A stretch of DNA of 64,000 nucleotides from Octopus vulgaris (Eukaryota), in assembly GCA_951406725.2 (NCBI GenBank), contig OX597820.1, positions 109,616,001 through 109,680,000 of the forward strand, in the 5' to 3' direction. Shown piece by piece: positions 140-62,047 of the stretch. Positions within the stretch are counted from its first letter, which is position 1. The number at the start of each line of letters is the position of its first letter. The translations under genes and the position numbers were made by a program. The notes beneath the pieces are model-generated. The model was not told the DNA's origin and did not search any database. It was given only the letters and a program-made list of their open reading frames with translations.

Positions 140-282
140 TACGACGGGCTTCTTTCAGTTTCCATCTACCAAATCCACTCACAAAGCTTTGTTCGATCTG
201 AGGCTATAGTAGAAGACACTTGCCCAAGGTGACACGCAGTGGGACTGAACCCGGGACCATGTGGTTCATAAGCAAGCTACTT
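139..282 (-). mobile_element. tRNA-derived SINE, 5' part
   Basis: Minus strand has B-box GGTTCAGTCCC followed by CACCTTGGGCAAGTGTC. Related copies lie at 34085-34450 and 45472-45846. Confidence 0.8.
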
Positions 283-492
283 TATTTCATGAAAGATTCG
301 CCATTAAGGCGTTACATAGAGGGAACATACAAATACAGACAAACATATAGGGTGTAGTAGCTTAAAATATTGGTGATTACAATAAAATATATATAATATT
401 TACAATATAAAGTTTTTAAAATTTGGTATTATACAGTAGGGCACGGATCCCTGCCATCCGGGTAGAACCTTTACTTCTTGATCCGGCCATGC

Positions 493-3400
493 TTACCTGG
501 TGCCAGATATACCCAGCTTGCACGCTACAGACTTTCATCTTTTCGCAAACATATCTCGTGACAGACACCTCTTCTCCAGCCTGATCTTACTACTGAGGTG
601 GTAATTGAAAAATTTGACCAACCCCTGGCCGGATACAAAGGTATCTGTCACTATACCTTTCGTACGCGTCTTCCTACTACGCAGGAAAGACAAGCCTTCC
701 TTTCCCTGCTGAGGAAGGTAGGTGGCACAATCTCAATGATAGACTCTGCTGATAGCTGTACTCTTCCATTCACTGACAACAGTTGTTTGGCGAAAGCAAT
801 CAGTGCCGATAACTCCGGACACTCCACGAATGCGTGCAAGATGGTTTCCCTATCCTGCTCACATCGCGGACATGTCGGCGAGACGGCACTTCTGTGCCTT
901 GACAGCTTGTCGCGAACAGGTAACGCCGCACAGAAACACTGCCAGGCCAGGGATTTCTAGTAATTATCCAGGTACCCCGGCCCGAACGTTCTCCGGAACA
1001 GGTTGGTCAACTGATTTTCATCGTAGCCCAGGGTCTCCCCCAAGGCGTCTTCGGACTTAACCTCCACTAACCCGCTATAGAAATCCGCGGTGGAACTCCT
1101 GTTGCCGGCATTGCCCGCCCGAGAGAGTAGCTGAAGTGCCTGATGGCATTCCAATTGCCAGTCCCCAAGCCTAGGTCTCTGCGTGATCCAATTACCAATG
1201 TCCGTTAAGGACGTTAATCGCGGATGGTAGAACCGAACATGCGGTGACCACACCTGTTTGCCATCCAAGTAAAGCCAGAGGTGCCTCAACCTTCACGCGA
1301 CCTTTCGCATCTTCAGCCAAGGCATCCCTAGCCCACCCTTTAGCGGTTTCTGGCAGCAGACAGAGCGCTTTACAAGTGGCTTCCCTCCTTTCCACAAAAA
1401 GTGGAAAAGGATTCTCTCCAACTTGTTCATCCACAAATCGGGGCAAGGCACCACGGTCAGGCGGTAGGTGACTACTGATGCTATGAACATCTGCACCACC
1501 TCCGCCCTCCCTAGCAGGGATAACGCCCGTCCAGACCAGGTCTGGTTTAGAGCGGTCACCTTGCCGGCCACCTCATTCCAATTTTTCTCTATCTGGAGAT
1601 CTGGCCCGAACCAGACTCCGAGCAGCTTAACAGGACCTTCCGTCCAACGCCCCACGACGTTATTGGACGGCATCGGCTTGCCCCTCCAGGTGCCGAGTTG
1701 CAAACCGACCGACTTGTCCTTGTTCACCTTTGCTCCTGCCACCGCCTCGTAGCTTTTGATGGCCTCTTCCACCACTGGAAGCTGGTCCTCATCTGCCACG
1801 GTGATGGAGATGTCATCTGCGTACGCCGTAGCTCCTCTTCCACACCATGGATCATGCGGTGCACCCCCTATTGCCTCCAATTTCCGTAGCAAAGGCTCAA
1901 GAGCCAACACATATAGAGGAGGGGACAGGGGACACCCCTGACGAACTGAACACTCGATCCTGAACGGCTTCGAAAGGGAGCCGTTCACCTTGACCACAGA
2001 CTCAATGTCGCTATACAAAGCAGCGATCCAACCTCGAAAGATCGGGCCCAGGCCAGCCTCCCCGAGTACCGCTGCCAAGTACTGATGGTCAACCCTATCA
2101 AATGCCTTAGACTGGTCTAAATGTACCAGTGCCCCTCCTGCGCCAGAAAGCTTCCCGACCCTCTCTAAGGAGTAGTGTATAAGGTGGAGATTGTCGTGTA
2201 TCGTCCTGCCCAGGATAGCGCACGTTTGCACTTCTCCGACAAGTTTATCCATAACCCGCGCCAACCTTTTCGCCAGCACCTTGGCCAAAATCTTTAACTC
2301 TGTGTTCAGCAGAGTTATGGGCCTGAAGTTGCCTATCTCGTCCCCCTTGCTCGGGTCCTTCCTGATTAACGTCACCACACCCCGGCTCGCAGACTTGGGA
2401 ATTTTCCCATTCTGCTGCCAGTCGGCGAAGACGCTAGCCAGCAGGTGCCCGAACAAGTCTGGCATACTTTTAAAAAACTCATAGGGCAGACTATCGAGAC
2501 CCGGCGACTTCTCCCCGGGGCACTCACCCAACGCCTCGATTACTTCCTCGGCTGTGATTGGCCCCTCACAGCACTCAGCCTCTCGTGCCGAGAGACGCGG
2601 GCCACCAGACAGGAAGTCCCTAAGGGCCTCACCATGATCTAGCGTCCCGCACCTCCTGAACAACTCACCGAAGTGCTTGTAAAGTGCCTCACACATCTCG
2701 TCCTGCTCCTTCACCGTGCATCCGTTTCCGTCAACAAGAGACCTAATTGTGGCATTGTTGCCACGCTGGGTTTCTATCGTACGGGCCCAATTAACATTAA
2801 TTCCCTCGCGGCCCAATGTTCGTACTTTAGCCCAGACTCTACACCCCTCATGTTTGGTTTTGAGGTGACGGTCTAATGCCGTTCTTGCCGCCAAAATGTG
2901 AGATGCATAGCCCAACCTCAACGCCTCCTCTAACTTCTTTGCTAATTGCCCTTCTATTCTAGCCCTATCTAGTCTTAGTTGCTTACTAAACCTAATGGAC
3001 TCGAATCGAATGGCTCTTTTCAGGGCGAACCACCACCGGTTATTAACCATGGCTCTGGTTAACGCCCTCTGCACTAACTCCTTAATCCGACTGCAGTATG
3101 CCTCACAAGTCAAAATAGACTTGTTCAGCTTCCAGTAGCCGTTTCCTATCTTTAGTGTGCTATCTATGTCCAGTCTACACTTGACCATTCTATGGTCCGT
3201 ATAGGGTACCTGGACAAGCTGTGGACAACTAAAACTAGACTTATCTCTAGTTCTTATCACTATCCTGTCTAGATAAGACTTGAACCTTCCGTCGCCACTC
3301 ATCCAGGTCCACTCTGGGACGTTGGGATGGTCAAGTCTGTAACAATCTGCCAGCTTAAGCAGGTCCACGAGACGTGAGTTCACTTTCCTATTGATCGAGC

Positions 3401-3860
3401 CAACACTATCGATGTGTATGTCAACGATAGCATTAAAGTCTCCTAATACTACTAAAGTCTTCAACGTCACGAGAAAGTTCTCTAGGCGCTGATAAAAATC
3501 AGTTTGGAAGCCTCTAGCACAAGGTGCATAGAGTCCGATCAACCTGAAGGCCTTACTGCTGTATGTCACATCAAGGACGACCAGCCCACCTTCAGGGTCC
3601 ACATAGTCTGTACTTATCTGCAGAGCCAAACTTTTACGGATCAGTACCACTACGCCCCCTCGTCCTCCGGTCTGACCGGGAGACATGATTTTCTCGTAGC
3701 CATTCAGGAGAGGCGAGAAGGTTTGTAGACTGTCCAGCTTGGTCTCTGTAGCAACCATCACATGCATATCATGTGATCTGAGATCGTCGAGGAAACACGC
3801 CTGCTTCCACTTCGAACTCAGACCACGCACATTCAAACAACCAAGGTTAAGAGACGCCAT
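493..3860 (-). pseudogene. E1 ORF2 (endonuclease-reverse transcriptase), frameshifted in its 3' third
   Basis: 855-aa ORF 1293-3860 continues in 957-1289 and 651-839, then FVSGQGLVKFFNYHL... to TAA at ~493-495. Confidence 0.9.
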
Positions 3861-3881
3861 TACAAAAAGTAAAGGTTCTAC

Positions 3882-5379
3882 TTACATTTCTTTGGAGATG
3901 TTGGGGATGACCTCACCACACGTGGATCCGTCCCCTTCTTCTCCTCTCTCTTCGCGTAATTCGGTAAATCCACAATCTTCCATATGGCCTTCTGGTTTCT
4001 GTCCTTTAGTTCCCGGTATAGGGGTTCTTCTACCATTGCACTCATGTTGTTGCGTGTACAGCATAGTCTTTTTGTGTTTTACAATGGCGTCATTTGTATA
4101 TGTGTCTGTCGTATCGTATTCTATTAACATAGTATTTTTGTTTTCTTCCGGGACAGATGGGCAGGGTTTCTTTTTTGTTGTCTGTGGTGCGTTTTTTCTG
4201 TTTTGTGTGGGGGATATGGGTGGGGAAAGGTCTACGGAAATGTTTCTTTCCCACTGGTGTGAATCCACCCTCTGAAACCTCCATGGTACACATGGTCTGA
4301 GGGGTTGGTGGCAGTTTCTTTCGGTGCAGTGTTTTCCGTTGGTGCCGTGTCTTCCAAGGGGGTTGGGTCATTTTGTTTATGTAGGGACTTGTGCATGCCG
4401 GGGCTGGGTTTTTCTGTGCTTTGTTTGGGGACTAGCACCTCAACAATGGGGATGGGAGTTTCTGTGTTTGTGGGGGTTGGTGTGTTTGAGGGGGCGGGTT
4501 TTTTTGGTTATTTGAGGGGCCTGGTGTGTGCAACAACTTTTTTTTTTCTTCACAGTCAGCTCGAATGTGGCCCTTTTTTCCGTAATGGTAACAGGTGGGC
4601 TTACGGCCTTCCACATGTACCCTAAGGGCCACATTCTCCCCAACGAGTACTCTCTCTGGTAGGGCCTGAATGTCCTCCTGTTTGCCTTGTATTAAAACCG
4701 TTATGTTCCGCCCTAACCACATCTGTGGGGCGGAACTTGTGGTCTGTAATATGTTTATCCGGTCCGTCCTATTAAACAACAGGCCGGCCACCACTTCTTT
4801 CGGGTCTACTGTGGGTGGGATTTCATTAATCCTTACACGGGATGTTCGTCGCCCCATGTACGTTGGCAAAAGTACCACTTCCTTGGTCTTCAGGGGGCAC
4901 ATGGAGTGCCCGCGAGCCACCTTTTCCTCTGAGAATTGAACTTCAACGGATCCGTATGCCCATCCCCTCGAGATATACACTATATCCCTCCATATCGGGG
5001 CCAGGCATTTTTCAATGGTTTCCTTCCCAAAGTGCTTTAACCTTTTGTCTTGTGGGCAGAAGGTTTTAAACACCACGGTCCTCTTTTCCGTTTCTAGCAC
5101 GGTGGAGGAGGGCGATATCACAACATCACCTCCCTCCTCCTTCATTCTTTTAAAATATCCCTGCAGCATGTCTGCAGAGATATCTATATTTTCGGTTGCT
5201 ACTTCGGCGACTGCCGAAAACTTTTTAACAGCGTTGGCGCAATTGCCAACATCAACATTGCTCTCTTCAAGAGTAGATTTTTCATGTATTATTTCAACCG
5301 ACATGGTTGAAAAGTAATTGGTTTCCCACAAAACTGGGAGACCTTTCGAAAAAAGAAATTTTCCTCTCACAGAGGACAA
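3882..5379 (-). pseudogene. E1 ORF1 (gag-like RNA-binding protein), frameshifted
   Basis: ORF 4432-5379 has an RRM-like region (SRGWAYGSVEVQF) and a zinc knuckle; a low-complexity linker leads to C-terminal segment 3882-4268. Confidence 0.8.
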
Positions 5380-5699
5380 AAGTAATTAATTTTTAAATGC
5401 TCACAGTCCCAGGTTCAAATCCCACCCCCGTTGGGGTGTGAAATGTAGCAACAAAGTCTACGACGATTTGAAGTTATTTTCCAGCACAATGAAATCCCCA
5501 AAAACCTATATTTACACGACAACAACAGTTCAAATCTCGCCCGTGCTACGGGTGGATGTCACAATAGAGCCTACAATGGTTAAAATAAATTTTTCACACC
5601 AAGAATTTGTTATCCCAAAAACGGGAAGCCTATAATATTTTTTTTTTTGCCTATATATATGTATGTATGCATATATATGTGTTCGTGTGTGTGTGTAAG

Positions 5700-6819: not shown

Positions 6820-9800
6820 TACAATTTCCATTGATGTTGATCGATTTTCATTTTGATTTTCATTTTGATTTTCATTTGCCTCAACAGGTCTTCACAAGTA
6901 GGGTTTGTGTCACAAGAAGGAAAGATATGCATAAATGGGCTGGCTACGTCCCAGGTAGAGGCCACGGGTTATGGTCTCACTTGTCCTGCCGGGTCTTCCC
7001 ATGCACAGCATACTTCCAAAGGTCTTGGTCTCTGGTCATTTCCTCGGTGAGACCTAAAGTTCGAAGGTCGTGCTTCACCACCTCGTCCCAGGTTTTCCTG
7101 GGTCTACCTCTTCCACAGGTTCCCTCAACCGCTAGGATGTGGCACTTTTTTACACAACTATCTTCATCCATTCTCGCTACATGACCATACCAGTGCAAAC
7201 GTCTCTCTTGCACACCACAACTGATGCTTCTTAGGTCCAACTTTTCTCTCAAGGTACTTACACTCTGTCGAGTATGAACACTGACATTACACATCCATTG
7301 GCGCATACTGGATTCATTTCTTGCGAGCTTACGCATATCCTCAGCAGTCACGGTCCAAGTTTCACTGCCATGTAGCATGGCTGTTCATACACATGCGTCA
7401 TACAGTCTGCCTTTTATTCTGAGCGAGAGGCCTTTTGTCACCAGCCTAATGTTTGAAGGTCGTGCTTTACCACCTCATCCCAGGTCTTCCTGGGTCTACC
7501 TATTCCACAGATTCCCTCAACCACTAGGGTGTGGCCCTTTGTCACCAGCTCTCTGAACTTTGCCCAGGCTATTCTTACTCTAGCAGTTACCCTTTCTGCA
7601 CACCTGCCCCCACTACTGACTTGGTCACCTAGGTAACGGAAGCTATCAACAATTTCTAGTTTTTCTCCCTGGAATGTGGCGGAAGTTGGTCTCTGAGCAT
7701 TTTCAGTGTTTATTGCTCCTGAGCATCTGCCACATACAAAAACTATCTTCACAGTTAGCCTTCCTTTGACATTGCTGCACCTCTTATGTGTCCATAGCTT
7801 ACACTTGGTGCATCTTATAGAGTTTCTACCTACGCCTTTTCTACAGATCGTGCAGGGCCATCTACCTGAAGGCATTTGTGATTTGCTTGCCTTCCTACAT
7901 ATTAGGACTTTGGTTTTGGCTAGGTTGATTTTAAGGCTCTTCAATTCTAATCCTTGTCTCCACACTTGAAACTTCTCCTCCAGTTCTGATAGTGACTCAG
8001 TAATTAGAGCAAGGTCATCAGCATATAGGAGCTCCCAGGGGCATCCTGTCTTGAATTTCTCCGTTATTGCCTGGAGGACTATGATAAATAGGAGGGGGCT
8101 GAGAACTGAACCTTGGTGGACTTCTACGTCTACCCTGTATTCTTTAGTGTACTCGTTGCCAACCCTCACCTTACTTACAGCATCTCTGTACATGGCTTGC
8201 ACAGCTCTCACTAACCATTCATCTATCCCTAGTTTCCTCATTGACCACCAGATAAGGGATCGGGGGACCCTGTCAAAGGCTTTCTCCATGTCAACGAAAG
8301 CCAGGTACAGAGGCTTATCTTTGGCAAGGTATTTCTCCTGCAGCTGTCTCACCAGAAATATGGCATCAGTAGTGCTTTTCCCTGGCACGAAACCAAACTG
8401 CATCTCATTGAAGCTGACTCTCTCCCTAATCAGTTGGGCTATGACCCTCTCCGTAACCTTCATTACCTGATCCAACAGCTTGATACCTCTGTAATTATTT
8501 GTATCTAAAGCGTTACCTTTACCTTTGTAGCAGTTGACTATTATGCTGCTACACCAGTCATTGGGTATGACTCCTTCGTGTATCACCTGGTTAACTATAC
8601 TGGTGACTAGGCTATAGCTGACACTACCAGATATTTTGAGCATCTCTGCAGTAATTCCTGGTGGGCCTGGGGCTTTCCCTGTCTTCATGCTTCTAATTGC
8701 CTTAACTACTGAGGAACTGTCAACTTAGATAGCTAGTCCCTCTGTTGAGTCGACATTCGACAGACTCTCTTTATCCTATTCATTTTCCTTATTTAGCAGC
8801 CTCTCATAATGGTGTTTCCAAACCTCTCTCTTTGCATCCTCATTCAGCGCAAGTGAGCCATCATCCATGCAAACACATTTCTCTCCTACCACATCACGAT
8901 TCTCTCTCACACACTGTCTTGCAACATGGAATACCTCAAGACTTTGGTCGTTACGGCGCAGAACATTGGCAAATTTTTTCTTATCTGCTTCCCCTCTGGC
9001 TAAATAAACCTGTTTCCTAGCTTCTCTTTTGGTAGTTTGATACAATTCCATGCTACCACCATTTTTCCAGTTCTTTCAAGCCTGTCTCTTTTCTCTAATA
9101 GCCCTGTCTATGACATTGTTCCACCACCACGTTATTTTGGGTCGAGAGGGGACTTTGCACCAGCCACAGATCTGGTCTCTTAGAGACCTCCAGTTGTCTT
9201 CTACCCCATGTGAAGCTATATCCCCTTCTACTTCGTCAAAGGCTTCAAGTAATATGTCCCTAAGTCTCTGTCCATTCGCAGGATCTTTAGGTTTCCAGAT
9301 CCTTCTTCTCCATGTTGGTCGTCTTCAGGTCGTCCTCTTAGTCCTGATCCTAAAGTCACTAACTACCAGTCTATGTTGTGGGGTACATTCTTCGCCTGGG
9401 AAGGTTTTGGCATTTATAAGCAGCCATCTTTCCCTTTTCCTGGCAAGGATGTAATCAATTTGGCTGGTATGTCGGCCCGATCGGTAGGTGACTAGGTGGC
9501 TGGTAGGTTTCCTGAAGTTAGTGTTGCAAACCATAAGATCATTTGCATCGCAGAACTCCAGCAGCCTGGTTCCCTCCTTGTTGCGGGAACCATAACCATA
9601 GCCTCTATGTACACCATGGAAGCCCCCAGCATGTCATCCAACGTGACCATTGAAGTCACCAGCCACAAAGAGAAGATCTCTGTCGTTCGTCGACGAGGCA
9701 GTCTGCAGTAGGGTGTCATAGAATCAGTCTTTCTGTCCATTGGGTAGCCCTGGCTGAGGGGCATAGGCCGATATAATGGTTGCTAATCCATGATGAAGCA

Positions 9801-10810: not shown

Positions 10811-11087
10811 TTAATAAGGGTGAGAGAATTAGATACTAATTTAATAGTATATTTATTCCACACCAAGTGGCCTAGTGCTTCGGGAAACCTGGATTATTAT
10901 AATATTTTATAACATATTATAATATTTTTACAAAATAAATATAAGAGAGTGGTCACTATATTGCTCACCCTAGCACTAGTTAATCCAAAAGGTTTCAACC
11001 ACGAAAATACATGCTTACCATGAAAGTCAGTACGATTGTTAGCTCACACGGACAGGGCAAATAAAAAATAACAAAAATACAGATTAT

Positions 11088-11167
11088 TTTGGGACAATTG
11101 TTTCGCTATTAATGAATTAAATGTAATTTTACTTACAAAAAAATCCATTTGTAGCTCGTCAGCCAAG
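11088..11167 (-). ncRNA. Type I hammerhead ribozyme, copy 1
   Basis: ttgg-CTGACGA-gcta...tagc-GAAAC-AATT-GTC-ccaa: full core, stems I and II, palindromic stem III. Confidence 0.85.
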
Positions 11168-11622
11168 ACTATCTGGATGAAATCCACTCAATCACACGCC
11201 AGATTTTACCATAACGGTAAATACGCGTGTGGTTCAATTGATTACATCCGACGTTATAATTCAAATGCCCCAACCAACAGCGCGCCAAACTTTCACGGAA
11301 AACAAATACAGCATTTAGAAATAAATGCAGCATAATTATAATTAATTAATAAGGGTGAGAGAATTAGATACTAATTTAATAGTATATTTATTCCACACCA
11401 AGTGGCCTAGTGCTTCGAGAAACCTGGATTATTATAATATTTTATAACATATTATAATATTTTTACAAAATAAATATAAGAGAGTGGTCACTATATTGCT
11501 CACCCTAGCACTAGTTAATCCAAAAGGTTTCAACCACGAAAATACATGCTTACCATGAAAGTCAGTACGATTGTTAGCTCACACGGACAGGGCAAATAAA
11601 AAATAACAAAAATACAGATTAT

Positions 11623-11702
11623 TTTGGGACAATTGTTTCGCTATTAATGAATTAAATGTAATTTTACTTACAAAAAAATCCATTTGTAGCTCGTCAGCCA
11701 AG
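11623..11702 (-). ncRNA. Type I hammerhead ribozyme, copy 2
   Basis: Identical to copy 1, offset by 535 bp. Confidence 0.85.
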
Positions 11703-11798
11703 ACTATCTGGTTGACGGATGTAATCAATTGAACCACACGCGTATTTACCGTTATGGTAAAATCTGGCGTGTGATTGAGTGGATTTCATCCAGATAGT

Positions 11799-11878
11799 CT
11801 TGGCTGACGAGCTACAAATGGATTTTTTTGTAAGTAAAATTACATTTAATTCATTAATAGCGAAACAATTGTCCCAAA
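11799..11878 (+). ncRNA. Type I hammerhead ribozyme, copy 3
   Basis: CTGACGAG at 11804-11811, CGAAAC at 11861-11866, GTC cleavage triplet at 11871-11873. Confidence 0.85.
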
Positions 11879-12332
11879 ATAATCTGTATTTTTGTTATTT
11901 TTTATTTGCCCTGTCCGTGTGAGCTAACAATCGTACTGACTTTCATGGTAAGCATGTATTTTCGTGGTTGAAACCTTTTGGATTAACTAGTGCTAGGGTG
12001 AGCAATATAGTGACCACTCTCTTATATTTATTTTGTAAAAATATTATAATATGTTATAAAATATTATAATAATCCAGGTTTCTCAAGCACTAGGCCACTT
12101 GGTGTGGAATAAATATACTATTAAATTAGTATCTAATTCTCTCACCCTTATTAATTAATTATAATTATGCTGCATTTATTTCTAAATGCTGTATTTGTTT
12201 TCCGTGAAAGTTTGGCGCGCTGTTGGTTGGGGCATTTGAATTATAACGTCGGATGTAATCAATTGAACCACACGCGTATTTACCGTTATGGTAAAATCTG
12301 GCGTGTGATTGAGTGGATTTCATCCAGATAGT

Positions 12333-12412
12333 CTTGGCTGACGAGCTACAAATGGATTTTTTTGTAAGTAAAATTACATTTAATTCATTAATAGCGAAAC
12401 AATTGTCCCAAA
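12333..12412 (+). ncRNA. Type I hammerhead ribozyme, copy 4
   Basis: Same sequence; GTC at 12405-12407, 534 bp after copy 3. Confidence 0.85.
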
Positions 12413-12742
12413 ATAATCTGTATTTTTGTTATTTTTTATTTGCCCTGTCCGTGTGAGCTAACAATCGTACTGACTTTCATGGTAAGCATGTATTTTCGTG
12501 GTTGAAACCTTTTGGATTAACTAGTGCTAGGGTGAGCAATATAGTGACCACTCTCTTATATTTATTTTATATATATATATATATATATATTACACAGATA
12601 GACATGAAAATACATTAACATGTCCCTGTTTCTCTTCCTTTTTCCCCTTTTACAATTTATTTGCAAATATCTGGTCAGCTTCTCTTTGTTTTTCCTTCTA
12701 AAAGTTTGTTGGTAATACCTTTTTTGATGTTTTCCTTCAATT

Positions 12743-16184: not shown

Positions 16185-16509
16185 GTATATATACATATAT
16201 ATATTATATATGTATGCCTATGTATATATGTATGTATGTATATATGTATGTATGTATATATACATATATTATATATGTATGCATATGTATATATGTATGT
16301 ATGTATATGTATATATGTGTATGTATATATACATATACTAGCATTAAAGACCCGTCGTTGCCGGGTCATAGTGCTAGTGGATGTATATATGTGTATATAT
16401 ATGTGTACATATTACATGTACATCTATATATATACATCTACACATAAAATACAAAATACAAAGTTATATCTTGATATCGCTAGTGATAACAATACTCAAA
16501 ATATATAAC

Positions 16510-16530
16510 AGACTGGAATTGTTAGCTCTT
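16510..16530 (+). repeat. Left copy of target sequence agactggaattgttagctctt
   Basis: Identical 21-mer at 28197-28217; partial copies at 26266-26285 and 22048-22057. Confidence 0.85.
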
Positions 16531-19500
16531 ATTTCTTTATTCACCATACGGTTATACATATAAAGACAGAACATCACAAATGATTTTACATGAATATGCG
16601 TTGGGGTCTATTAAAAATTTACAAATGAATATATAATTCGGATGATAGGACATTTTTTACACAAGCAATTTCACAGATGGAGTGGGGCGGGCTTACGGAC
16701 CCCACAAACCCCGCCACGACACTGATCTTAGGTTTTTTTCCTTCTTTTTTTTCCGGCTTACCTCGCATTTATGAGGGTCCTTTTACTCACAACATTCTTC
16801 CATCTTTCATCGAACACTTTCTTACTCAGGCCCCTCCTCTCTTGTTCTATTTGTCTTTTTAGGTGGAATTTAAAATATTCCACCAGACTAGAACCAGAGA
16901 TGAAGTTGCCTGCTATCACCCCTTTCATCCTCGTCTTCCATACTGCCTGTTTCGCAATTGAAACCACAGAGAGAAAACAATTCTTACCTTCTTTCGTTAA
17001 GAAATCCGGTGGGTCAATTTTTACAATGGATTCAGTCGATAGCTGTACTCTTCCTCCACTTGACAACAGTTGTTCGGCAAAAACCCACATGTCTGCCACC
17101 TCCGAGCACTGCACGACCGCGTGCGAGACGGTTTCCCTGTCTCACCCACACCTCGGACAGGTCGGGCTGACTTGGCCACCATGCCTTGCGAGTTTATCCC
17201 AAACAGGTAAGGCTCCTCGGTAACACTGCCAAGCTAAGGACTTCTGAAAATTATCCAGGGTCCTCGGCCCAAATGTACGTTGGAACAGACTGGCCAGCTG
17301 ATTATCGTCGAAACTTAGGGTTTCCCCTAATGTATCATCGCAACTGACCTCTACAAACCCTCTATAGAAAACAGCGGTAGAACCACTGCCGCAGGCATTG
17401 CCCGAGCGACGGAATAGTCGGAGTGCCTTGCGACACTCCGTATACCATGTATCCAACTTCGATCTGCGATTATACCAGGCTTCCCGTCCACCAAAACTGG
17501 TGAAATTGGGAAACATCTGTTTCGCCAACGGAGACCACACCCGTTCACCATCCAGATGGAGCCACAGATGCCTTAACCTCAGCGCATTTCTGCGCATCAT
17601 TAGCCACGGCATCCCTAGTCCACCCTTTAACGGTTTTTGACAACAAACAGAGCGTCTCACAAGTGGTTTCGAGCTCTTCCACAAAAAGTGAAAGAGCTGT
17701 CTTTCCAACTTGGTCAACCACGAATCCGGGCAAGGCACGACGGTAAGGCGGTAGGTGATCACCGATGCGATGAACACATTGGCTACCTCCGCCCTGCCTT
17801 TCAGGGATAACCACCGCCAAGACCAGGTCTTGGTTACTGCAGCTACCCTGCTCGATACCTCGCTCCAGTTCTTCTCTATTTGGAGGTCTGGTCCGAACCA
17901 AACCCCGAACAACTTAATCGGACCCTCTGTCCAACGTCCCACGACGCTGTCTGAAGGCATCGACTTGCCTCTCCAGGTGCCGAGCTGCAAGCCGACTGAC
18001 TTTTCGCGATTAACTTTTGCTCCTGTCACCGTCTCGTAAACCTCTATGGCCTTGCCTACTTTACGTAGGAGGTCCACTTCAGTCACGATGATAGTGATGT
18101 CATCCGCGTACGCCGAAACCGACATTCCACGACCTGGCTGCCTCGGGATGCCACTCAGTTTTCGCAGCAGCGGCTCGAGAGCCACTACATACAAAAGCGG
18201 GGAGAGTGGGCATCCTTGACGAACCGAGCATTTGACTCTGAACGGCTTAGAAATAAAGCCGTTCACCCGAACTACCGAGTCGACGTTATCGTACATTTCG
18301 ATGATCCACCTGAGGAAGCCAGGCCGAACTGAGCCAGAACAGACACCAGGTAATGATGGTCGACCCTATCGAAAGCTTTTGATTGGTCTAAGTGGACCAC
18401 TGCCCCTCCCTTGCTGGGATCGCTATTAATTCCCTCTATAGTGTATCTAATTAGATGGAGATTATCCTGAATGGACCTGCCAGGTACGGCACACGTTTGT
18501 GCCTTCCCTATTAGTCCATCCGCGACACGCGCCAATCTGTTTGATAACACTTTGGCCAAAATCTTCAGCTCTGCGTTAAGCAGAGTGATGGGCCTAAAAT
18601 TATCAATGACATCCCCCTTGTCCGAGTCCTTCCTGATTAGTGTCACCACTCCCCGGCGCACAGATCTGGGAATAAACCCATTCTGCTGCCAGTTCGCATA
18701 GACGTTCGCCAGTAAGTCCCCGAACAAGTCCGGCATACTTTTATAAAGCTCGTAGGGTAGACCATCCAGTCCTGGCGCCTTACCCGCGCCGCAGTCATCC
18801 ATGGCCTCTATTACTTCCCCAGGCGTGATCGGCTCCTCACTACACTTCGCGTCCTGCTCCGAGAGGCGCGGCAGCCCGTTGAGAAGGTCCGTTAGGCCCC
18901 TCCTCCTATCCGGTCCGCCGCTCCCCCCAAAGAGCTGGGCGAAGTGGTCCTGAAAAGCCTCACACATCTCCTCGGGCTCGTTTATCAACTTACCTTGTTG
19001 GTTCGTCAAAGATCGAATTGTGGCATCGTTGCCACATTGGGCTTCCACCACTCGGGCCCATCTCGCGGCATTAATTCCTTCGCTCCCCATTGCATGTTGT
19101 CTAGCCCTGACAATGCAACCCATGTGTTTGGCTTCGAGGTGCTGGTTTAAAACCAGTCTCTTGACCTTCACCTGGGCTGCCGTGCCAGTTCGCATTGCTT
19201 CCTCTAAGTCCTTAACTAGTGCTGATTCCCTTCTAGCCTCTCTAGCTACTAGATCTATACTATATCTAATGGACTCATATCTGATGGCTCGCTTGAGGGC
19301 ATACCACCATTTGTTGTTAATTATGATTCCGGTCAAAGCCCTCTGAATCATTAACCTTATCCTGTCACTGTACTCCTTAATCGCCAAAAGGGACGTATTA
19401 AGTTTCCAGTAACCAGGACCTCTATTCGTCTTATCTATGTCTAGCCTACAGGTGACCATCTTGTGGTCACTGTAGCTGACCATGTGGAGCTGTGGACTCC

Positions 19501-21812
19501 TAGCTAGTTTCTTATCTACTTTTCTAATTAATATCCTGTCTATGTACGACTTGATAGATCCGTCGCTATTTGACCATGTCCACAATGGAGCGTTCGGATG
19601 TTCCAGTCTATATGGATCTACCAGCTCGAAACATCTTAGTAGATCCTGGAAGCAAGCATTTCCTTTCCTATCTGTTCGCGAGCCCTCACAGTCTACCCGC
19701 ACATCGTAGACTGTGTTGAAGTCTCCTAAAACAACTAAAGGATGCGATGTACTCAGAAACTTTCCAAGGTTCCGAAAATAATCACTTTGTTCCCCTTGAC
19801 TGTGGGATGCGTAAACCGCAACCAGCCTGATTGTCTTACGACTACTGAACGTCAAATCAACGACGACCAGTCTACCTTCTGGATCTGAAAAAATCAACTT
19901 TTTCTCAGAAACCCGGTTCTTTTTACACAGGACCAACACCCCGCTTCCGCCGGACAGACGGCTCGGAGAGATAATTCTCTCGTAACCGCTGAACAGCGGG
20001 AGCGGATCTCTTCGCCCCTTTAACCAGGTTTCTGTGGCAACAACAACATCTAAATCCCGTGACCTGATGTCATTTAGGAGGCGCCCTTGCTTCCAGTTCG
20101 TCACCAGGCCACGCACATTTATGCACCCTACATGAACACGAGCCATCACCTACCTTTTAGTTGGTTTTCCTTTTTTCCGTTTGTCGTGGGGGGAAGTCTG
20201 CATTATACAACGACTCGTGCAAGTCGAGACGCAGACCTCTGATGTCTTTTGGGTATTCCTCATGTATAATGTTGTAATTTAATCTGTCGATTTTACACAC
20301 TTCTACATTTTTGGGCAATACCCTGTAAGTTTGAATTTTTTCTGCTGTTGGGGCTTCATTAATAAGTTTCACCAACCTATCGTTATCTTTGTTTATTGAG
20401 ATGTACACCATCTCTAATCCTTCCATGTTTTTCTTTGGGCTTTGTGGGGGTGATGGGGGGGACGGCGGGAGTAGTTTGGGAGGGGAGGGAATTGTTCGAC
20501 ACTGGGAGGTGGGGGTGGTTGTTCGGGTTGGGTTGGGGGGGTCTTCTCTTTTTTTTTCTTTTGTGTGGAACCGTGGTTGGGTGGGGTGAATTTTCCCCCC
20601 TGTGTGTTATTTTTCTTTTTGCTTGTGCATGGGGTGGGTGGGTTCAAGTCTTCATTTTTTCTTTTTGGTGTTTTTTTCTGCCTCACCAGTGTGAAGGCAT
20701 TTTCTTCTTCTGTTGTTTTCTCTTCCACCGTTTCTTTTTTCCTCTTCTCCTCTGCTTCCGTCCTTTTTCTCTCTTCTTCTTTCTTGCGGGTGGGGCAGTC
20801 TATACGGATGTGGCCTTTCTCACCACATCCGTAGCATCGAGGCTTTCGCCCCTCCACCACCACCCGCAAATTTATTTCATCGCTGAAATTGATATTTTCT
20901 GCCACCTCCTCCAACGTCTCTGGGGCCGCCTGTACTGTCACTTGAAGAGTTTGACCTCTCCAATTCTCCATCCTGACCTTTGTTATCGCTATAACACTTA
21001 TTTTTTCTTCCAGCCCCATTAGTAAGGCTGGAAGCAACCACTTCGCCTCGATTTCTGGCGGTATGTCCTCGATCCTTATTTTGGCGGACCTCCGCTCCAA
21101 ATAGGAAGGCAAGAGAACAATGTCACTCGCCTTAATTGGGGTTAGCGAGTGCTTTCTTGCCATTTGCTTGCTCTTAAAATATACCACTATTGTGGCGTAC
21201 TTTTTGCCCCATGTCACACAGTCTATGTCTTGCTATATTGGTTGCAGACACTTCTCTGCCTGTTCCTTTGTTACTCTTTCGATTTTTTTCTCTTTTATTA
21301 CAAATGATTTGTAAATCACAATCCTTCTCTGTGTTTCATTTTTAATTTCTTCTGGGAGGGTGGCTTTTATATTATTCCCCTCCCTTACAAACATAGTTTT
21401 GTATTTTTCATATTCTATGTCCTACATCTTTATCTCTTCCGTCTTCCGTCCGGCGGCGGCTGCGAAGTTGTATGTTTTAGCTTGTTTTCCTTCAATAATT
21501 TTAGCTGCAGACACAGCTACACTTGAAGGCGAACCTTCGATAACTTTAGCTGCGGACACAGCTACACTTGAAGGCGAACCTTCGATAACTTTAGCTGCAA
21601 GCACAGCTTCACTTGAAGGCGAACCTTCAATAATTTTAGCTGCAGACACAGCTACACTTGAAGGCGAACCTTCGATGACTTTAACTGCAGGCAAACCTGC
21701 TTCACTTGAAGGCGAATCTTCGTCACTTGAAGCGACCAGTGTTTCCACATCAAACAACATGTTTTTTTTTGACTTCATGTCTTTTTTGTTCATTTTTTCC
21801 ACAAATGTAGTG

Positions 21813-21856
<44 letters not shown>

Positions 21857-22047
21857 TTTTTGTTTTTGTATGTAACGTGTAGCACTTTTCCCCTCCGTAA
21901 GGAGGGGAATAACAATATCTCTTGTTATTACACCAGACGTTCAAAAGTTCAAACAAAACAACAGTTTCTTTAACAAACGCTAAACAGTTACTTACAAATT
22001 ACTGAAAATACCACGCTTCAAATACGGGAAAAATCAGACATCAATTG
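16531..22047 (-). mobile_element. Tx1-type LINE E2, full length, few frameshifts
   Basis: ORF1 pieces 21422-21802, 20414-21217 (CYGCGEKGHIRIDC) and 20157-20426. ORF2 pieces 18272-20149, 17142-18296 and 16758-17114 with EN, RT (AYADD) and zinc finger. Confidence 0.93.
21490..21730 (-). repeat. 45-bp coding minisatellite in the E2 ORF1 N-terminus
   Basis: About five copies encoding EGSPSS(V/E)AV(S/L)AAK(I/V)I. Confidence 0.85.
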
Positions 22048-22057
22048 TGGAATGGTT

Positions 22058-25000
22058 TTATTATTACCCACAAGGGGCGAATATAGAGGGGACAATACAA
22101 CCTGATGTGGGGTCAGATTCTCGGATGGAGTTACAAAAAAGATGAGATTAAAAATTCACAAAAATACAAAAAATATAAAATCGAATGAAGAACAGACCGG
22201 AAGACATTACGGATGGAGTGGGGGCGGGTTTAACTCGGACACCACGAGCGCCGCCTCACCACTGATACTTTGGTTTCGTCTTGTTTTACATTTATGTGGT
22301 GTCATCCATTCGCAACTTTCGTGCTACATCCTTCCATTGTTCTTCATACACTCTCTTAGTCAGGCATTTTCTCTCCAGCCCTATCTTCCTTTTCAGGTGA
22401 AAGATGAAGTAATTCATCAAACCAGGGCCGGATATGAACTTGCCTGACCGTAAACCTTTCATTCTCGTCTTCCATATCACCTCTTTCGCAATTGCTACCA
22501 CAACGAGAAAACAATTCTTACCTTCTTTCGCGAGGAAATCTGGTGGGTCAATTTTTGTAATAGACTCAGTCGACAGCTGTACTCTTCGTGTGCTTGACAA
22601 CAGCTGTTCGGCATAAACCCACACCTCAGACACGACCGAACAATGAACAATAGCGTGCGGGACGGTTTCCCTATCCCGCTCGCATCTTGGACATATCGGA
22701 CTGTCTTGGCCACCGTGCCTTGCGAGTTTATCCCGAACAGGTAGAGCTCCTCTGTAGCATTGCCATGCCAGAGACTTCTGGAAGTTGTCCAGTGTCTTCG
22801 GCTCGAACGTACGTCGGAACAGACTGGCCAGCTGATTATCGTCGAGACCTAGGGTTTCCCCCAAGGTATCTTCACATTCCGCCTCTACCAACCCTCTATA
22901 GAAGAATGTGGTAGAACCCCCACCGTAGGCGTTGCCCGAGCGACGGAATAGCAGGAGAGCCTTGTGACACTCCGTGTACCATGTGCCTAGTTTCGATCTA
23001 CGATTCAGCCAGGTTTCCCATCCACCGAAACTAGTGAACTTGGGAAACATCAGTTTTGCTAGCGGAGACCACACCCGTTCACCATCCAGGTAGAGCCACA
23101 GATGTCTTAACCTCAGCGCATGTCTGCGCATCATCAGCCAAGGCATCCCTAGCCCACCCTTTAACGGTTGTTGACAGCAAGTAGAGCGTTTCACAAGTGG
23201 TTTCCCGCCCTTCCACAAGACGTAGAAGAGCTGTCTTTCCAACTTGATCAACCACGAATCAGGGCAAGGAACAACGGAAAGGCGGTAGGTGATAACCGAT
23301 GCGATAAACACATTGGCTACCTCCGCCCTCCCTTTCAGGGATAGCCACCGCCAAGACCAGGTCTTGGTTACTGCAGCCACCCTGCTCGATACCTCGCCCC
23401 AATTCTTCTCTATTTGGAGGTCTGGACCGAACCAAACCCCTAGCAACTTAATCAGACCCTCCGTCCAATGTCCCACGACGCTGTCAGGAGGCATCGACTT
23501 GCCTCTCCAGGTGCCGAGTTGCAAGCCAACTGACTTTTCGCGATTAACTTTTGCTCCTGTCACTGTCTCGTAAACCTCTATGGCCTTGCCTACTTTACGT
23601 AGGTGATCCATTTCGGTTACGATGATGGTGATGTCATCCACGTACGCTGACACCGATTTTCCACTACCTGGCTGTCTCGGGATGCCGCTCAGTTTTCTCA
23701 GTAATGGCTCAAGAGCCATCACGTACAAAAGCGGGGAGAGCGGACACCCTTGACGAACCGAGCGCTTGATGTTGAACGGCTTCGACAAGAAGCCGTTCAC
23801 CCGAACTACCGAGTCGATGTTGTCGTAAATTTGGATAATCCACCTGAGGAAGCCAAGGCCCAGCCCGAACTGTGCCAGGGCAGATACCAGGTAGCGATGG
23901 TCGACCCTATCGAACGCTTTAGATTGGTCTAAATGGACCAGTGCCCCACCCTTGCCAGAATCACTATTAAACCCCTCTATAGTGTACCGCATAAGATGGA
24001 GATTATCCTGAATGGTTCTGCCGGGAACAGCACATGTCTGTGCCTCCCCGATCAGACCATCTGCGACACGCGCCAATCTTTTCGATAACACTTTGGCCAA
24101 AATCTTCAACTCTGTGTTTAGCAGAGTGATGGGCCTGAAATTATCAATGCACTGCCCCTTGCTCGGGTCCTTTCTGACGAGTGTCACTACTCCCCGGCGC
24201 ACAGATCTGGGTATGAACCCGTTCTGCTGCCAGTTCGCATAGACCTCCACCAGTAGGTGCCCGAACAAGTCTGGCATACTCTTATATAACTCATAGGGTA
24301 GACCATCTAAACCCGGCGCCTTGCCCGCGCCGCAGTCCACCATCGCCTCAACCACCTCCCCAGGCGTGATTGGCCCTTCACAGCCCTCCGCATCTCGCCC
24401 CGATAAGCGCGGCAGCCTGTCGAGGAGGTCCGTAAAGGCCCTCCTCCTATCCAGTCCGCTGCACTCACCGAAAAGCTGAGCGAAGTGCTCCTGAAAGGCC
24501 TCACACATCTCCTCGGGCTCGTTTATCAACTCACCTTGTTGGTGCGTCATAGATCGAATCATGGCGTCGTTACCACGCTGAGCTTCCACCACTCGGGCCC
24601 ATCTCACGGCGTTGATTCCTTCACAACCCATTGCGCGGATCCTAGCCCTGACAATGCAGCCCATGTGTTTGGCCTCGAGGTGCTGGTTTAACGCCAGTCT
24701 CTTGGCCGCCACCTGAACCGCAGAGCCAGTTTTCAAGGCTTCCTCTAATTCCTTAACTAGATTAGATTCCCTCCTAGCCTCTCTAGCCACTAATCCTATG
24801 CTATATCTAATTGACTCGAATTTGATGGCTCGCTTGAGGGCATACCACCATTTGTTATTAATGATGGCACCAGATAGCGCCCTCTGTACTCCTTAATCGC
24901 CAAAAGGGACGTATTAAGTTTCCAGTAACCGGAGCCTCTATTTTTAACCTTATCTATGTCAAGCTTACAGGTGACCATTTAATGATCACTGTAGCTGACC

Positions 25001-26265
25001 AGGTAAAACTGTGGACACTTAGCTATTTTTCTGTCTACTTTTCTAATTAGTATCCTATCTATATATGACCTGGAAGATCCGTCGCTGTTTGACCATGTCC
25101 ACAATGGAGCGTTCGGAAATTCCAACCTATAAGGATCTGCTAGCTCAAAGCGGCTTAGCAGTTCCAGGAAGCCAATGTTACCTTTTCTATCTGGACGCAA
25201 GCCAACACAATCTACATCCGCTTTGCAAATTGTGTTAAAGTCTCCTAGCACAACTAATGAATGCGAAGTACCTCGGCTTTCTGCCCTCCACAAACACTAG
25301 CACCCTCTCCTCCTCGCTGAGCCTCAATATCTCCGGTATTTCTTCTAACGTTTGGACCTCCGCCTGAATCGCCATTGTGATACATTGGCTTTGCCAAAAC
25401 CCCTCCTCCTCTACTGTAGCCTGGAGGATAGTGATCTTGTCCTCCAGGCCCAACATCACTGCCGTCACCAGGCATGTGGCGTCCGCTTCTGGCGGAATAT
25501 TTTTCATTAATATTTTTGAGGTCCTTCTGCCTCTGTACAGGGGGAGAAGGACTATATTCTCCGCTTTTTGAGGTTCGGTTGATAGCTTCTTGGCTATCTC
25601 CTCAGTCCTGAACCTCACCTCAACTGTTCCAAACTTTCTGCCACGGTTTATATACGTAATGTCTTTCCTTATTGTCTTCAGACAATCCTCTATTTTTTTT
25701 TCCTCCACTCTTTGAATGCTTTTCATTGTTGTATTGTATGTCTTGTAGATAATCCTTTTTCTTTCTACTTCTTCTTTCTTTCTGACGTCTGATTCCACTG
25801 CTATTTCATTTCCTTCCTTTTTTCAAAAGTGCTTCATACTTTTCTAGGTTGCTCTTATCTGTGTTGATTTTTTTTTGTTTTTTTCCTGCAACTTCTGCGA
25901 ACTTCTTCACTGGGGCCTCTTCTTTTTCCGGCGTCACCGCCGGTGAACTTTCTTCACCTGATACAGGTGAATATGAGATAGGAGTCTCCATCTCTGGATG
26001 TGGCTTTACAAGCCTTTTCAATTGGCTTTAACAAGCCTTCAAAAATTTTGGCTTCACAAGCCTTTTGTGTATATTTTAAACTGTTTCACAACAATTATAT
26101 CAAAACAATTCCCCCGTGGGGGGGGGGGGGGAATTTTAATACGTAGCCTTCGCGCGAAGGCTACTAACAGTTTTTACACAGAAACACAATATATATAAAA
26201 CAAAGTAACAATAGTTAAATTCACAAACCGGTAATAAACAGCAAAATGACAAACACAGACTGGCG
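22058..26265 (-). mobile_element. Tx1-type LINE E3 with an internal deletion joining ORF1 to mid-endonuclease
   Basis: ORF1 25806-26021 and 25270-25798 stops at VEGRKPR and jumps to GTSHSLVVLGDFN. ORF2 22292-24790 has AYVDD and CPRC..H..C. Confidence 0.92.
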
Positions 26266-26285
26266 TATAACAGACTGGAATTGTT

Positions 26286-28196
26286 TTATTCCTACCCACA
26301 AGGGGCAACATAGAGGGGACAATACAATCGGGAAAAAAATAATATAATGAGTTATGGAATTTGTACAATGTGGTGTAATGCCCACTCGATCCCTGAAATC
26401 GAGTGGTTACATTTCGTCATTTTTTTTCTCAAAGATACATTTCACAATAAAATTCAAAATCATTTTACATATATTTCAAAAGAATTTTCAGAGTGTATTA
26501 TCACTTCAACATTTTGCAGAATTTAAAATTCTTTTCACCAATAAAGTTTTCAAATAAACATTTTCTTTTTTAAATAAATTCCATTACCTCGACCAAATCT
26601 TCATAGATCTCCATTGTTCTTGGCCACCTTACAAGTTGGCATTTCATGTGTTTTAACACGTTCTTACCGGCTGCTTCGATGAATGCATCGGCGCCGTCCT
26701 CGTGGACTAGTGCACCCGTTTCTTTCCATTCGGTACCCGTCCTGACCCATGTGTATCCATCTGTTTCGTTTATCACATTTTCCATCTCCTCACAATGCCT
26801 GTGATAGACCAACGTTCCATAGAATTTGTATCGCCTGTTCTCTCTAGTCTTCCTCTTAGGACTTATTTCCTCTTTGCTCTCCTCTCTCGGTTTCTCTCTT
26901 TCTCTCTTTTTGTTTTCTCTTCTTTCTTTTTCCTTCTCTTGTCTTTTTGGCTCTTTGTCTGTCGTCTCTCTACCCTGTGCCTTATCTTCCTTTCCTGTTG
27001 TTTCTTTTTCTTTTCATGTGCCATCTTTTCCTTTCTCTTGCTTCTGTTCCTTCTCTTGTTTTTTCCCTGTTTTTTCTCTTTCCTTTAGTGTACTTTCCTT
27101 TTCTTTCTCTTGATTCTGTTTTGGTTCTTTCTCTATTACTTCTTTGCCCTGTGAATTTTGTTCCTTTTCTATTAATTTCTTCCCTTTGATTTCATTTTCC
27201 TTCAGTGTGTTGTTACTTCCTTTCTCTTTTTGTTTCACCGTTATTTCCTTTTCCTTGCTTTCGCTGTTCTTTCCTTCGTGTTCTTTTTATTCTCTTTTTT
27301 GTTTTCTTCCGTTGTCTCTCCACTTTGTGTCTTTTTTCGCTCCATTTCCTTCTCCGCTGTGAATTCATATAGCGGACATTCCTTTCTTATGTGTCCTCTT
27401 GACCCACACAAGTAGCAGTTCGGCTTTCTCCCCTCCACTATCACGGCCATTGTTCTCTCATTTTCTAGTTCAATTTGGAAGGGAAACCTTTCTATGTCTT
27501 CTATTGTGGCCATCAGCCACATTTTCACTCCGAATCCCTTCCAGTTCACAACATTGGTCTCCTTGATCGACCCTATTTCTATTTCCTCCTTTGCTGCCCC
27601 AATAATGGCTGTTACCAGCATTTCTGTTTTAATTTCTGGGGGCACCTTTGGGACTCTTACTCGAACCCCTCTTTTTCCTTTATATGTAGGCCACATGATG
27701 AAGTTTTCAGCTTTTAGTACCGTGGAAGCTAATGAGGCCGCAACTTCTTTTGTTGCGCATTTCACCTCCACTGTACCATATTTCTTTCCTCTGTTCACGT
27801 ACGTTGCCTTTTTCATAATGTCCCCCAGACATTTCTCAATTTCTTCTATCGTTACTCTCACCAATTTTTTTGTAATCCTGTCTTGCGTCCTGTACGTTAT
27901 AGTCTTATTATTTTTTTCTTCTATCGTTTCAGCAGGTGGGACTAGCTTTATGCTGTCACCCTCCCTTTTGATGAATTTTTCATAATCAAATAATTGTTCT
28001 TTTCTAAAAAACACTTCTCTTACTATAAGAGGCTCATCACTTTTCGTTGCGGCGACCCCCGCGTAAGTCTCCATGACTTGAGGGTCGACGCACCTTCTAT
28101 AATAAGGTTCCAACACGTGGCGGCAAGAACCTCACGCGATTCAACTTTTTTTCCAATTTAACAGTTCACACAAAAATTAACTAACCAACTCGATGA
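26286..28196 (-). mobile_element. ORF1-only Tx1 derivative E4 (HAL1-like non-autonomous element)
   Basis: ORF1 27241-28116 (NRGKKYGTVEV; CYLCGSRGHIRKEC), K/E-rich linker and C-terminal segment 26570-26812. No ORF2. Terminal ~42 nt shared with E3; 14-bp duplication agactggaattgtt on both sides. Confidence 0.8.
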
Positions 28197-28799
28197 AGAC
28201 TGGAATTGTTAGCTCTTCTTTTTTCTCTACATTGTATACTTTATAGACAATAGTCTTTTCTTTAATTTAATTTTTTATTATCCATCTGGACTATTCCATT
28301 TCTGCATGCTAATTTTATTTTTAATTTATTCCCATTCATGTGAAACCACTTATTCAAGTTCAAATCATTGATGCAATTTTATACCAATTGCTATTTTTAC
28401 TTTTGTTATATTATACTTTAGTTTGATTTTAATTATTACTTACTACATATAATTCAATTGTTATTATTATTTTTATTGTTAAAGTGAAAGCATCTGACAT
28501 AAAATAGAGAAATACTTTTGTTTCACTTTTAACACGTAATACTGAAATAGTGGAGAAGATATGATATTGCTATGGGCTCGCTCTAGGCAAGAAGTTGAAC
28601 ATTTTTTTTTGCCCATGAAACTACATGGACCCTAAGTAAGGCATGTGTAAAATTTGAAGGAAATTGGTTGTGTAGTTCTCAAGTTTTAGGGAAACACACA
28701 GACAGACAGACACACATTCTCAGTTTTATATATATATAAAGATATATTTATATGTATGCATATGTATATATATATATATATGTATGTATATGTATATAT

Positions 28800-40989: not shown

Positions 40990-41185
40990 GTGGCAAGCTG
41001 GCAGAATTGTTAGCGCATCAGGCAAAATGCTTAGTGACATTTCAGCTGTCTTTACATTCTGAGTTCAAATTCTGCCAAGGTCAAATTTGCCTTTCATCCT
41101 TCTGGGGTCAATAAAATAAGTAACAGTCAGGCACTTGGGTTGATGTAATCGATTTACCTCCATGCCTGAAACTTTCTGGCCTTTA
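40990..41185 (+). mobile_element. tRNA-derived SINE with Meta-domain-like core
   Basis: A-box-like agctggcagaa, B box gagttcaaattc, core gcctttcatccttctggggtcaataaaataagta. Confidence 0.7.
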
Positions 41186-53100: not shown

Positions 53101-53127
53101 CGTCTGGATAATGGGGCGTCATGTACC

Positions 53128-53284
53128 TATTTCTTTATTACCCACAAGGGGCTAAACACAGAGCGAACAAACAAGGACAGACATAGGTATTAAGTCGATT
53201 ACATCGACCCCAGTGCGTAACTGGTACTTAATTTATCGACCCCGAAAGAATGAAAGGCAAAGTCGACCTCGGCGGAATTTGAAC
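53128..53284 (-). mobile_element. 5'-truncated SINE with Meta-domain-like core and Tx1-like 3' tail
   Basis: B box gttcaaattcc, core gcctttcattctttcggggtcgataaattaagtaccag, tail gccccttgtgggtaataaagaaata. Confidence 0.8.
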
Positions 53285-53394
53285 ACGTATTGATAGATTT
53301 AAAATGTCATAGCATATGTGTTGTTTAGAGGCAGTACGAGCATTTGAGTATCTAGATACAGCAGTTAAGTATTTACATATTTGATCATCATATA

Positions 53395-61611: not shown

Positions 61612-62047
61612 TGAATACTATATTTGAGGGGGAAAAATAATTAATTAGATAAATGACTGAATGAAAGCCAGAGAGAGAATGAAAATAGATAAATAATAAA
61701 AAATACGGTAGAGAATGGAAATAGATAAATAATGAAAAAAATACGGTAGAGAATGAAAATAGATAAATAATGAAAAAAAAAAAAAAAAAAAAAATACGGT
61801 AAGAGACGAGGGGGCATATTTTCGGAGGAGAATGGGATAAACATCGAAGAATGGCACTGAAGGAAAATAAACTTTAAAAATGCAATGCATGAAGTCGCCA
61901 TGTTTAGAGAATAGGGGAACGAAGGGAGAATAGATCAAGCTATCCAAACAAAACGCTTAAAAATATGAAAAGAGCAGGATGAAATTGACTTAGCTGGCCA
62001 TTTTTGGAAGTCTGTGTTTTCTCTGAAGGTGTAGCGAGTGAATAGGG
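61293..62047. repeat. Locally duplicated purine-rich non-coding blocks
   Basis: 61293-61464 recurs at 61610-61820; 61463-61527 recurs at 61985-62047. Confidence 0.8.

Follow-up and report, generated by a model that had tools for sequence, protein, structure and literature searches.

How do three different long interspersed elements (LINEs) come to lie head to tail at a single spot inside a small Helitron transposon? The question is raised by a stretch of 64,000 nucleotides of the Octopus vulgaris genome (assembly GCA_951406725.2, contig OX597820.1; G000:C7:109616001-109680000), hereafter the window, in which an earlier note had described three stacked Tx1 elements, E2, E3 and E4. We analysed the window and searched the 2.8 Gb genome for related copies. 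The stacked array is real and is a genome-wide feature. Judged from its junctions and from the copies described below, closely related LINE families of the L1/Tx1 type most likely settle at one position of a ~720-bp Helitron by site-specific target-primed reverse transcription, and each new copy seems to enter the duplicated target upstream of the previous one.

The array in the window

On the minus strand of the window, to which all array coordinates refer, the order is Helitron 5' arm, E4, E3, E2 and Helitron 3' arm. The 5' arm (28207..28742) belongs to a non-autonomous short variant, runs from a TC end preceded by A to ...AGAAAAAAGAAGAGCTAACA at the cut of E3 and E4, and is 94-96% identical to four empty copies. 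It is followed by the left target copy ATTCCAGTCT (28197..28206), whose 10 bases recur in the right flank of E4 when the flanks are compared. E4 (26282..28196) is a non-autonomous element of 1.9 kb that matches a copy on C2 along its entire length with 95.8% identity. It starts with TCATCGAG, a tag typical of its group, carries a first open reading frame (ORF1) with a CCHC knuckle (27241-28131) without endonuclease (EN) or reverse transcriptase (RT), and ends in the tail ...GTAGGAATAAAACA, of which ~45 bp are common to E4 and E3. A 16-bp target copy of the untouched type, ATTCCAGTCTGTTATA (26266..26281), serves both as right flank of E4 and as left flank of E3.

E3 (22054..26265) is a LINE with an internal deletion, 96-98% identical to a solo copy at the same Helitron site on C9, relative to which 954 bp near 25264-25272 are lost, and with them the last part of ORF1 and the initial half of EN. 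Its RT and C-terminal zinc domain lie within 22292-24892 and its tail reads ...GTAATAATAAAACC. The hybrid target ATTCCA (22048..22053) is the remainder of the left duplication of E2 running into the E2 5' end. E2 itself (16531..22047), a 5.5-kb LINE with 95.8% identity to a copy on C5 and 83% identity to E3 in ORF2, is the sole full-length element of the three and is broken by stops and frameshifts: ORF1, from about 21793, contains stops and a CCHC knuckle, and ORF2 (EN-RT, about 20146-16758) has one frameshift and one stop before the tail ...GGTGAATAAAGAAAT. The 15-bp right target duplication of E2, AAGAGCTAACAATTC (16516..16530), is placed by comparison with a solo copy on C11, L157 and the off-site copies L153 and L154, and adjoins the Helitron 3' arm (16338..16515), which has a hairpin at 16349-16367 and ends in CTAG followed by T.

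The four motif copies placed by the earlier note at 16504, 22048, 26266 and 28197 are all found at these coordinates, and the target 21-mer occurs twice in the window and never in 100 shuffles. Removal of the elements restores a Helitron close to the ~720 bp proposed, since the arms sum to 718 bp with A before TC at 28743/28742 and CTAG before T at 16338/16337. The stack in one orientation likewise stands, with the refinement that only E2 is full length while E3 is deleted and E4 is ORF1-only. An assembly artefact was considered and rejected, because the three elements differ, the junction types recur at other loci and array units diverge by up to 6%. A small RNA gene as the target was also rejected: in the four loci compared with Rfam, nothing matched at gathering level.

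The host Helitron and its empty copies

The two arms also occur joined as an empty element that contains the motif. The 20-mer AACAATTCCAGTCTGTTATA has 917 genome matches (control 0), and the first 30 of these loci comprise four empty short copies, one short copy filled by E2 and 25 copies of a variant with about 310 extra bases; A precedes TC in 14 of 15 and T follows CTAG in 20 of 20 parsed ends. A short-arm pattern gives 173 matches against 21 for its control, and all 36 pristine-looking short arms sampled from the matches listed are empty. In these copies A lies before TC in 21/21 and T after CTAG in 25/25 parsed cases, and the 16 of the 36 that could be measured span 685-909 bp. The pattern of the long variant, which has the same motif 310 bp further in, is matched 1,060 times (control 42).

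The element bears the hallmarks of a Helitron, namely a 5' TC, a 3' CTAG, insertion between A and T and a GC-rich hairpin ~10 nt ahead of the 3' end (fold of -11.9 kcal/mol, z -5.2). From the 150 genome matches to PF14214, 20 Rep-encoding loci were fetched, and most have the hairpin core CCCGG-CAACG-CGGG before CTAG and T, downstream of the long ORF; among these 20 loci there was no autonomous Rep partner with matching extended ends beyond this common hairpin type. We also compared a marker in the 3' arm to ask whether filled short copies derive from long ones by deletion. Of 19 filled loci, 15 have the short type, as do nearly all the short copies that are empty; the window has the long-type letter.

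Occupancy of the site across the genome

When genomic copies are tabulated, their flanks are not random; random flanks would have refuted the proposed targeting. The 3' ends of close E2 copies lie on the Helitron site in 10 of 12 cases and E4-type tails in 16 of 21, while exact E2 5' ends are on site in 9/9 and E3-type 5' ends in 4/5. Filled arms number at least 13 among the first 100 short ones, and each of these 13 was fetched. A wider search for the tail gives 342 matches (control 72), and the first 100 in genome order, counted by eye, are distributed over this site (22), the long-variant site (37), a third repeat (6), and other places or chance matches (35). The site is occupied singly as well as in arrays, the largest before a Helitron 3' arm comprising eight elements (C4). 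The same spot is thus occupied at many other loci, in agreement with the proposal of a Helitron-targeting group of related LINE families. Of 30 matches to the tail of E3, 10 are on the site, six show nothing but ATT at the cut, and the flanks of the other 14 are different. Several of these off-site matches represent sister subfamilies; as a group they weigh against the site-specific explanation.

A few chance insertions multiplied by Helitron carriage might produce the same picture, as the host is itself mobile and duplicate pairs exist among the filled loci (C29a/b; L303/L304). Array contents nevertheless vary between loci, 5'-truncated copies with their own duplications are found on the site (C4b, C1c), and in a star-like tree the filled arms are interspersed with empty ones. 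We therefore consider carriage largely refuted and give it next to no credence as the general explanation.

A contig from a second organism joins an E3-type tail to 32 bases of Helitron, which hints weakly at the existence of this junction beyond the octopus genome. A further LINE tail was observed ~35 bases upstream of the main site in a Helitron 5' arm (L216:1790-1860).

Cut positions and target duplications

The idea of one target site holds for the Helitron spot, but two neighbouring cuts are used: E2 is inserted at the upstream one, before AAGAGCT, and E3 and E4 11 nt further on, before ATTCC. Among 14 off-site copies fetched for their duplications, these are 10-17 bp long; in the E3/E4 type they start at ATT, which lies four bases beyond the tail, and in E2 at A(A)GA. 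No duplication was found in three of the 14 (L143, L147 and L150), and two have rearranged 5' ends (L141, L145). Since off-site duplications begin at ATT, the first four bases of the motif copies at 22048 (AACC) and 26266 (AACA), read on the minus strand, are the element's own tail. Target-like 3' bases as a product of RNA read-through were rejected on the same ground, as only four bases belong to the tail.

Left and right flanks agree in at least 14 of 16 bases in 25 of 50 scored elements, with a few rows displaced by an indel or a missed tail. Most others share ~10 bases and then continue with family-typical sequence. The elements short of this agreement weigh against the overall explanation, and require either target sequence tagged onto the RNA or recombination.

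Target sequence at the 5' ends and growth of the arrays

The window contains such uneven flanks. E3 has the untouched 16-mer on its left and the E2 hybrid on its right, and the left flank of E4 continues into TCATCGAG while its right flank reads GTTATA. The copy at 26266 had been regarded as too long; its length is normal for a duplicated untouched target, but the junction is indeed odd, because the other flank of E3 shares only six bases with it. This 16-bp copy was likely brought in by the RNA of E3, as analogous tags at other loci suggest.

For instance, at C16/C31, where no Helitron arm is present, a local 17-bp duplication is followed by the Helitron target, AGCTGCCAATGCCAGTCT or TAACAATCCAGTCT, and only then by the element. 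The presence of the Helitron target before copies at a non-Helitron locus supports 5' tags borne on RNA. Conversely, the element at C7c lies in the Helitron site with a tag from the target of another repeat, C4f has an apparent chain of such tag fragments, and C2b retains the tag though the end of the local arm is deleted. Moreover, among the first 100 arms three have an upstream GCC variant, each of them filled, and all 84 unfilled arms lack it; a single clade of six GCC arms is rejected (p-AU 0.008), with 0 shared columns. Together, the findings at these loci and arms suggest that the RNA brings donor sequence with it. The lack of a Helitron tag in two E3 copies of full length, inserted at a different site, counts against this explanation.

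The alternative is that insertion is site-specific while recombination between filled Helitrons, by gene conversion or unequal crossing-over, has produced left junctions with mismatches, 26266 among them, and some of the length of the arrays. Adjacent units are most alike in a 10-element array on C1 (94-99.7%), two units with 99.2% identity are present at C31 against a single one at the related C16 locus, and ORF1 and 5' modules are swapped on near-identical ORF2s, all of which recombination would explain. It does not readily account for tags that, at a locus without Helitron homology, separate the element from a local duplication; nor does the shared GCC variant reach into the arm, and the joint of E3 and E2 offers only six bases of homology. 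We regard recombination as an unlikely main source of these junctions. Target sequence at the 5' terminus of the RNA, one of two origins the earlier note offered for the 26266 copy, is supported directly at other loci, and recombination may still have formed this one junction.

The direction of growth can be read from the duplications. The 16/16 flanking repeat of an ORF1-only element at L157 includes the 5' end of E2 and matches the untouched target at only 8/16, and similar duplications at C7c and C4a contain the 5' end of the neighbour. Because these duplications include the 5' end of the earlier element, the arrays grow upstream and the target is regenerated, as had been proposed. Origin of whole arrays from single events, through multi-element read-through RNAs or jumps of the reverse transcriptase between RNAs, could be read from E4-then-E3 pairs at many loci and from a full element on C12 joined to a 340-bp 3' fragment with no target between. 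It appears very improbable, since the closest relative of the window E4 (C2b) precedes a different E3 type, that of E3 (C9) is solo, and a target copy is present at almost all internal joints.

Under successive target-primed insertion, E2 would have been the first to arrive in the window, followed by E3 and finally by the ORF1-only E4, mobilised in trans. Full-length RNAs would start ~20-30 nt upstream of the element, so that the cDNA end bears the target copy of the donor; this end would anneal to the cut target, replace the local sequence and restore a usable site. The endonuclease would pick the site by reading the bases just past the cut together with an upstream purine-rich stretch.

Site choice and the endonuclease

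All 17 filled arms compared at ATTCC are of the short type, and no filled junction at the long-variant motif was found among the 89 Helitron rows listed, nor in any of the seven rows ending in G. The long variant is struck by sister subfamilies before ACATGG, 7 nt past a tract AGAAAAAAGA(AGA) shared by both variants, and ATTCC of the short variant also lies 7 nt past this tract. One array at the ACATGG site has 10 units.

Trees of EN cluster by target, imperfectly, and the ATTCC and ACATGG groups differ by 13 diagnostic residues in EN and three in the RT segment. The EN hairpin loop WS(N/S)SDGSSRSY is nearly constant, while the residues after YAP vary (NQK, NHT, NKK, HQGE). This post-YAP loop is the most variable among subfamilies and aligns with L1 residues 117-120, which contact DNA, Asn118 in the major groove (excerpt of PMC8565326). 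A truncated short interspersed element (SINE) copy lies at the cut of E2 in a Helitron (L305:8270-8450; G000:C28:9668270-9668450), flanked by a variant of the local duplication and preceded by a piece resembling the 5' end of E2; its position with a local duplication fits targeting set by the protein. We infer from these comparisons that the endonuclease sets the target and needs upstream context. Pairing of read-through RNA or tethering by a host protein may contribute to site choice.

A broader reading joins these points. A young radiation of LINEs would follow a fixed Helitron position, which lies 7 nt beyond a purine-rich tract, in both host variants despite their unlike sequences at the cut; endonucleases ~95% identical would have been retargeted by a few changes in surface loops; the same 20-mer would be ignored in ~1,000 copies that lack the right context upstream; and stacked 5' tags would record the earlier targets of each lineage, including jumps between the Helitron and a mariner-containing repeat. 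We offer this reading tentatively, at somewhat less than an even chance. Several results weigh against site choice by the endonuclease as such: ATTCC requires nine changes on the EN tree, C7c carries the EN of the other subfamily, the loop motif NHT is found with three targets, and the amino-acid excess of EN over RT in the main pair ATTCC/ACATGG is not significant (10/10 vs 3/11, p 0.15).

Other sites are used by related subfamilies. Sister subfamilies insert at ACTGAATACTC and TCGATACTC in a second repeat (L219-L222 and L224-L228, on C3, C4, C8 and C10), which encodes what we take to be the C-terminus of a mariner-like transposase (HPPYSPDIAP), and an E2-related subfamily inserts before GCAGTTGGCTTTTTGGC in a third repeat (L223, L124-L125; C13, C4). 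L151 (C25) and L152 (C11) are full-length E3-like copies, the former with an intact ORF2 of 1132 aa. They were rejected as off-site ATTCC copies, as they have a recombinant EN and share another site, TATCCGTGCATGAATAC.

Family membership of the LINEs

A preference for particular target sequences is common in the Tx1 clade without defining it, and these LINEs have one. An intact 1132-aa ORF2 of an E3 relative matches PF03372, PF00078 and PF13966, that is, an N-terminal APE endonuclease, an RT and a C-terminal zinc domain, as in the L1 group, and the 10-17-bp duplications and 5'-truncated copies are also L1-group traits. The closest solved relative of this ORF2 is human L1 ORF2p (E 3e-66, residues 6-868). 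The best named matches are fish proteins with ZCCHC3-type domains (357 bits); human L1 scores 227 bits in a separate search. For ORF1, the Tx1 clade would be marked by type I, which combines a CCHC knuckle with an RRM, as opposed to the coiled-coil type of L1. A CCHC knuckle is present in all seven ORF1 pieces scanned, five of them over or near the Pfam cut-off. No Pfam match to an RRM was obtained in ORF1, and a ZCCHC3-type RRM cluster, at 0.89, offers no more than a lead. ORF1s of this type are consistent with Tx1 (excerpt of PMC5203782). The LINEs likely belong to the Tx1 clade.

Swapping of modules is suggested by E3-like copies whose ORF2s are 93-97% identical while the 5' untranslated region and ORF1 are only ~70% identical (e.g. 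L133, L136, L194). Two more distant relatives of E2 and E3 (~68% identity), with unrelated 3' flanks, lie outside the Helitron in the window (about 250-5600 and 62030-64000, both minus strand). An abundant SINE-like repeat ends in ...GCCCCTTGTGGGTA(A/G)TAAAGAAAT, as do these LINEs (53124-53287, minus strand; 41021-41156, plus strand). It has 20 tails in about 1.0 Mb of fetched DNA, and several copies are head to tail, with the tail followed by its own head. The shared 3' tail suggests that the LINEs likely mobilise this repeat. The window also holds another RT frame with a weak PHD-finger match (7438-8724, minus strand), nested inverted repeats of 300-490 bp with 98-100% identity (10884-12578) and a tandem repeat of 63-bp period with several identical units (57310-57816).

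Comparison with known systems

The published systems are compared here on the basis of excerpts of the papers cited. The crocodilian Tx1-Mar/SINEU families (Kojima 2015, PMC4494074) are similar in that Tx1 families favour a non-autonomous DNA transposon with two preferred regions in one host; SINEU-3 is tandem around a target-site duplication (TSD), one 5' extension of SINEU-2B weakly resembles the host transposon, and non-autonomous riders are also known. Their host, in contrast, is Mariner-N4, with Harbinger and LTR elements also used, and the word 'Helitron' is absent from the main text. The octopus copies are younger (94-99% alike), form mixed arrays of autonomous and ORF1-only elements of up to 8-10 units, and belong to subfamilies that split two variants of one host. 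Xenopus Tx1L is likewise an APE-type LINE at a fixed site of a non-autonomous DNA transposon, Tx1D, and its EN is said to recognise ~10 bp around the cut (as cited in PMC4494074 and PMC1919474). Tx1D, however, is a piggyBac element.

In Drosophila R1 arrays (Stage and Eickbush 2009, PMC2718515), insertion also occurs into a 14-bp TSD at the 5' end of the earlier copy, and transcripts of the melanogaster type include 6-27 nt of target from upstream, as deduced from copies off target, and anneal to the site. R1 differs in clade and in its 28S rDNA target, and its tag-bearing type shows mostly target deletions and few tandems, whereas tags and duplications are found together in octopus. R2 RNA with upstream 28S sequence (PMC3774820) similarly has a flank-derived 5' end that shapes the 5' junction, and the 5' tags of HeT-A record the upstream neighbour (bioRxiv 10.1101/782904); both belong to other clades with other targets, R2 relying on a ribozyme and HeT-A on a promoter that the upstream copy has at its 3' end.

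Targeting of transposons by Tx1, and upstream growth and tags like those of R1, have precedents; the Helitron host appears to be new. A Helitron target for such LINEs was not found in our literature search, which covered material other than Repbase entries, subscription papers and supplements, where an earlier description may exist, and the words 'target' and 'nested' are absent from the excerpt of the octopus repeat annotation (PMC13282606).

Implications

For annotation, arrays of this kind inflate and fragment repeat counts. Helitrons are added to the transposons that serve as safe landing sites, and the junctions keep evidence on second-strand priming. Of greatest interest is that near-identical endonucleases seem to have been retargeted. 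It is poorly resolved how APE-type LINE endonucleases acquire or switch target specificity, and loop swaps in L1 did not transfer specificity (excerpt of PMC8565326). In the octopus genome, near-identical endonucleases are associated with four or more different sites, each defined by dozens of insertions on and off the site, which makes the determinants directly testable. If the broader reading is true, the retargeting series would be a natural, dated mutagenesis series for target change in a LINE endonuclease.

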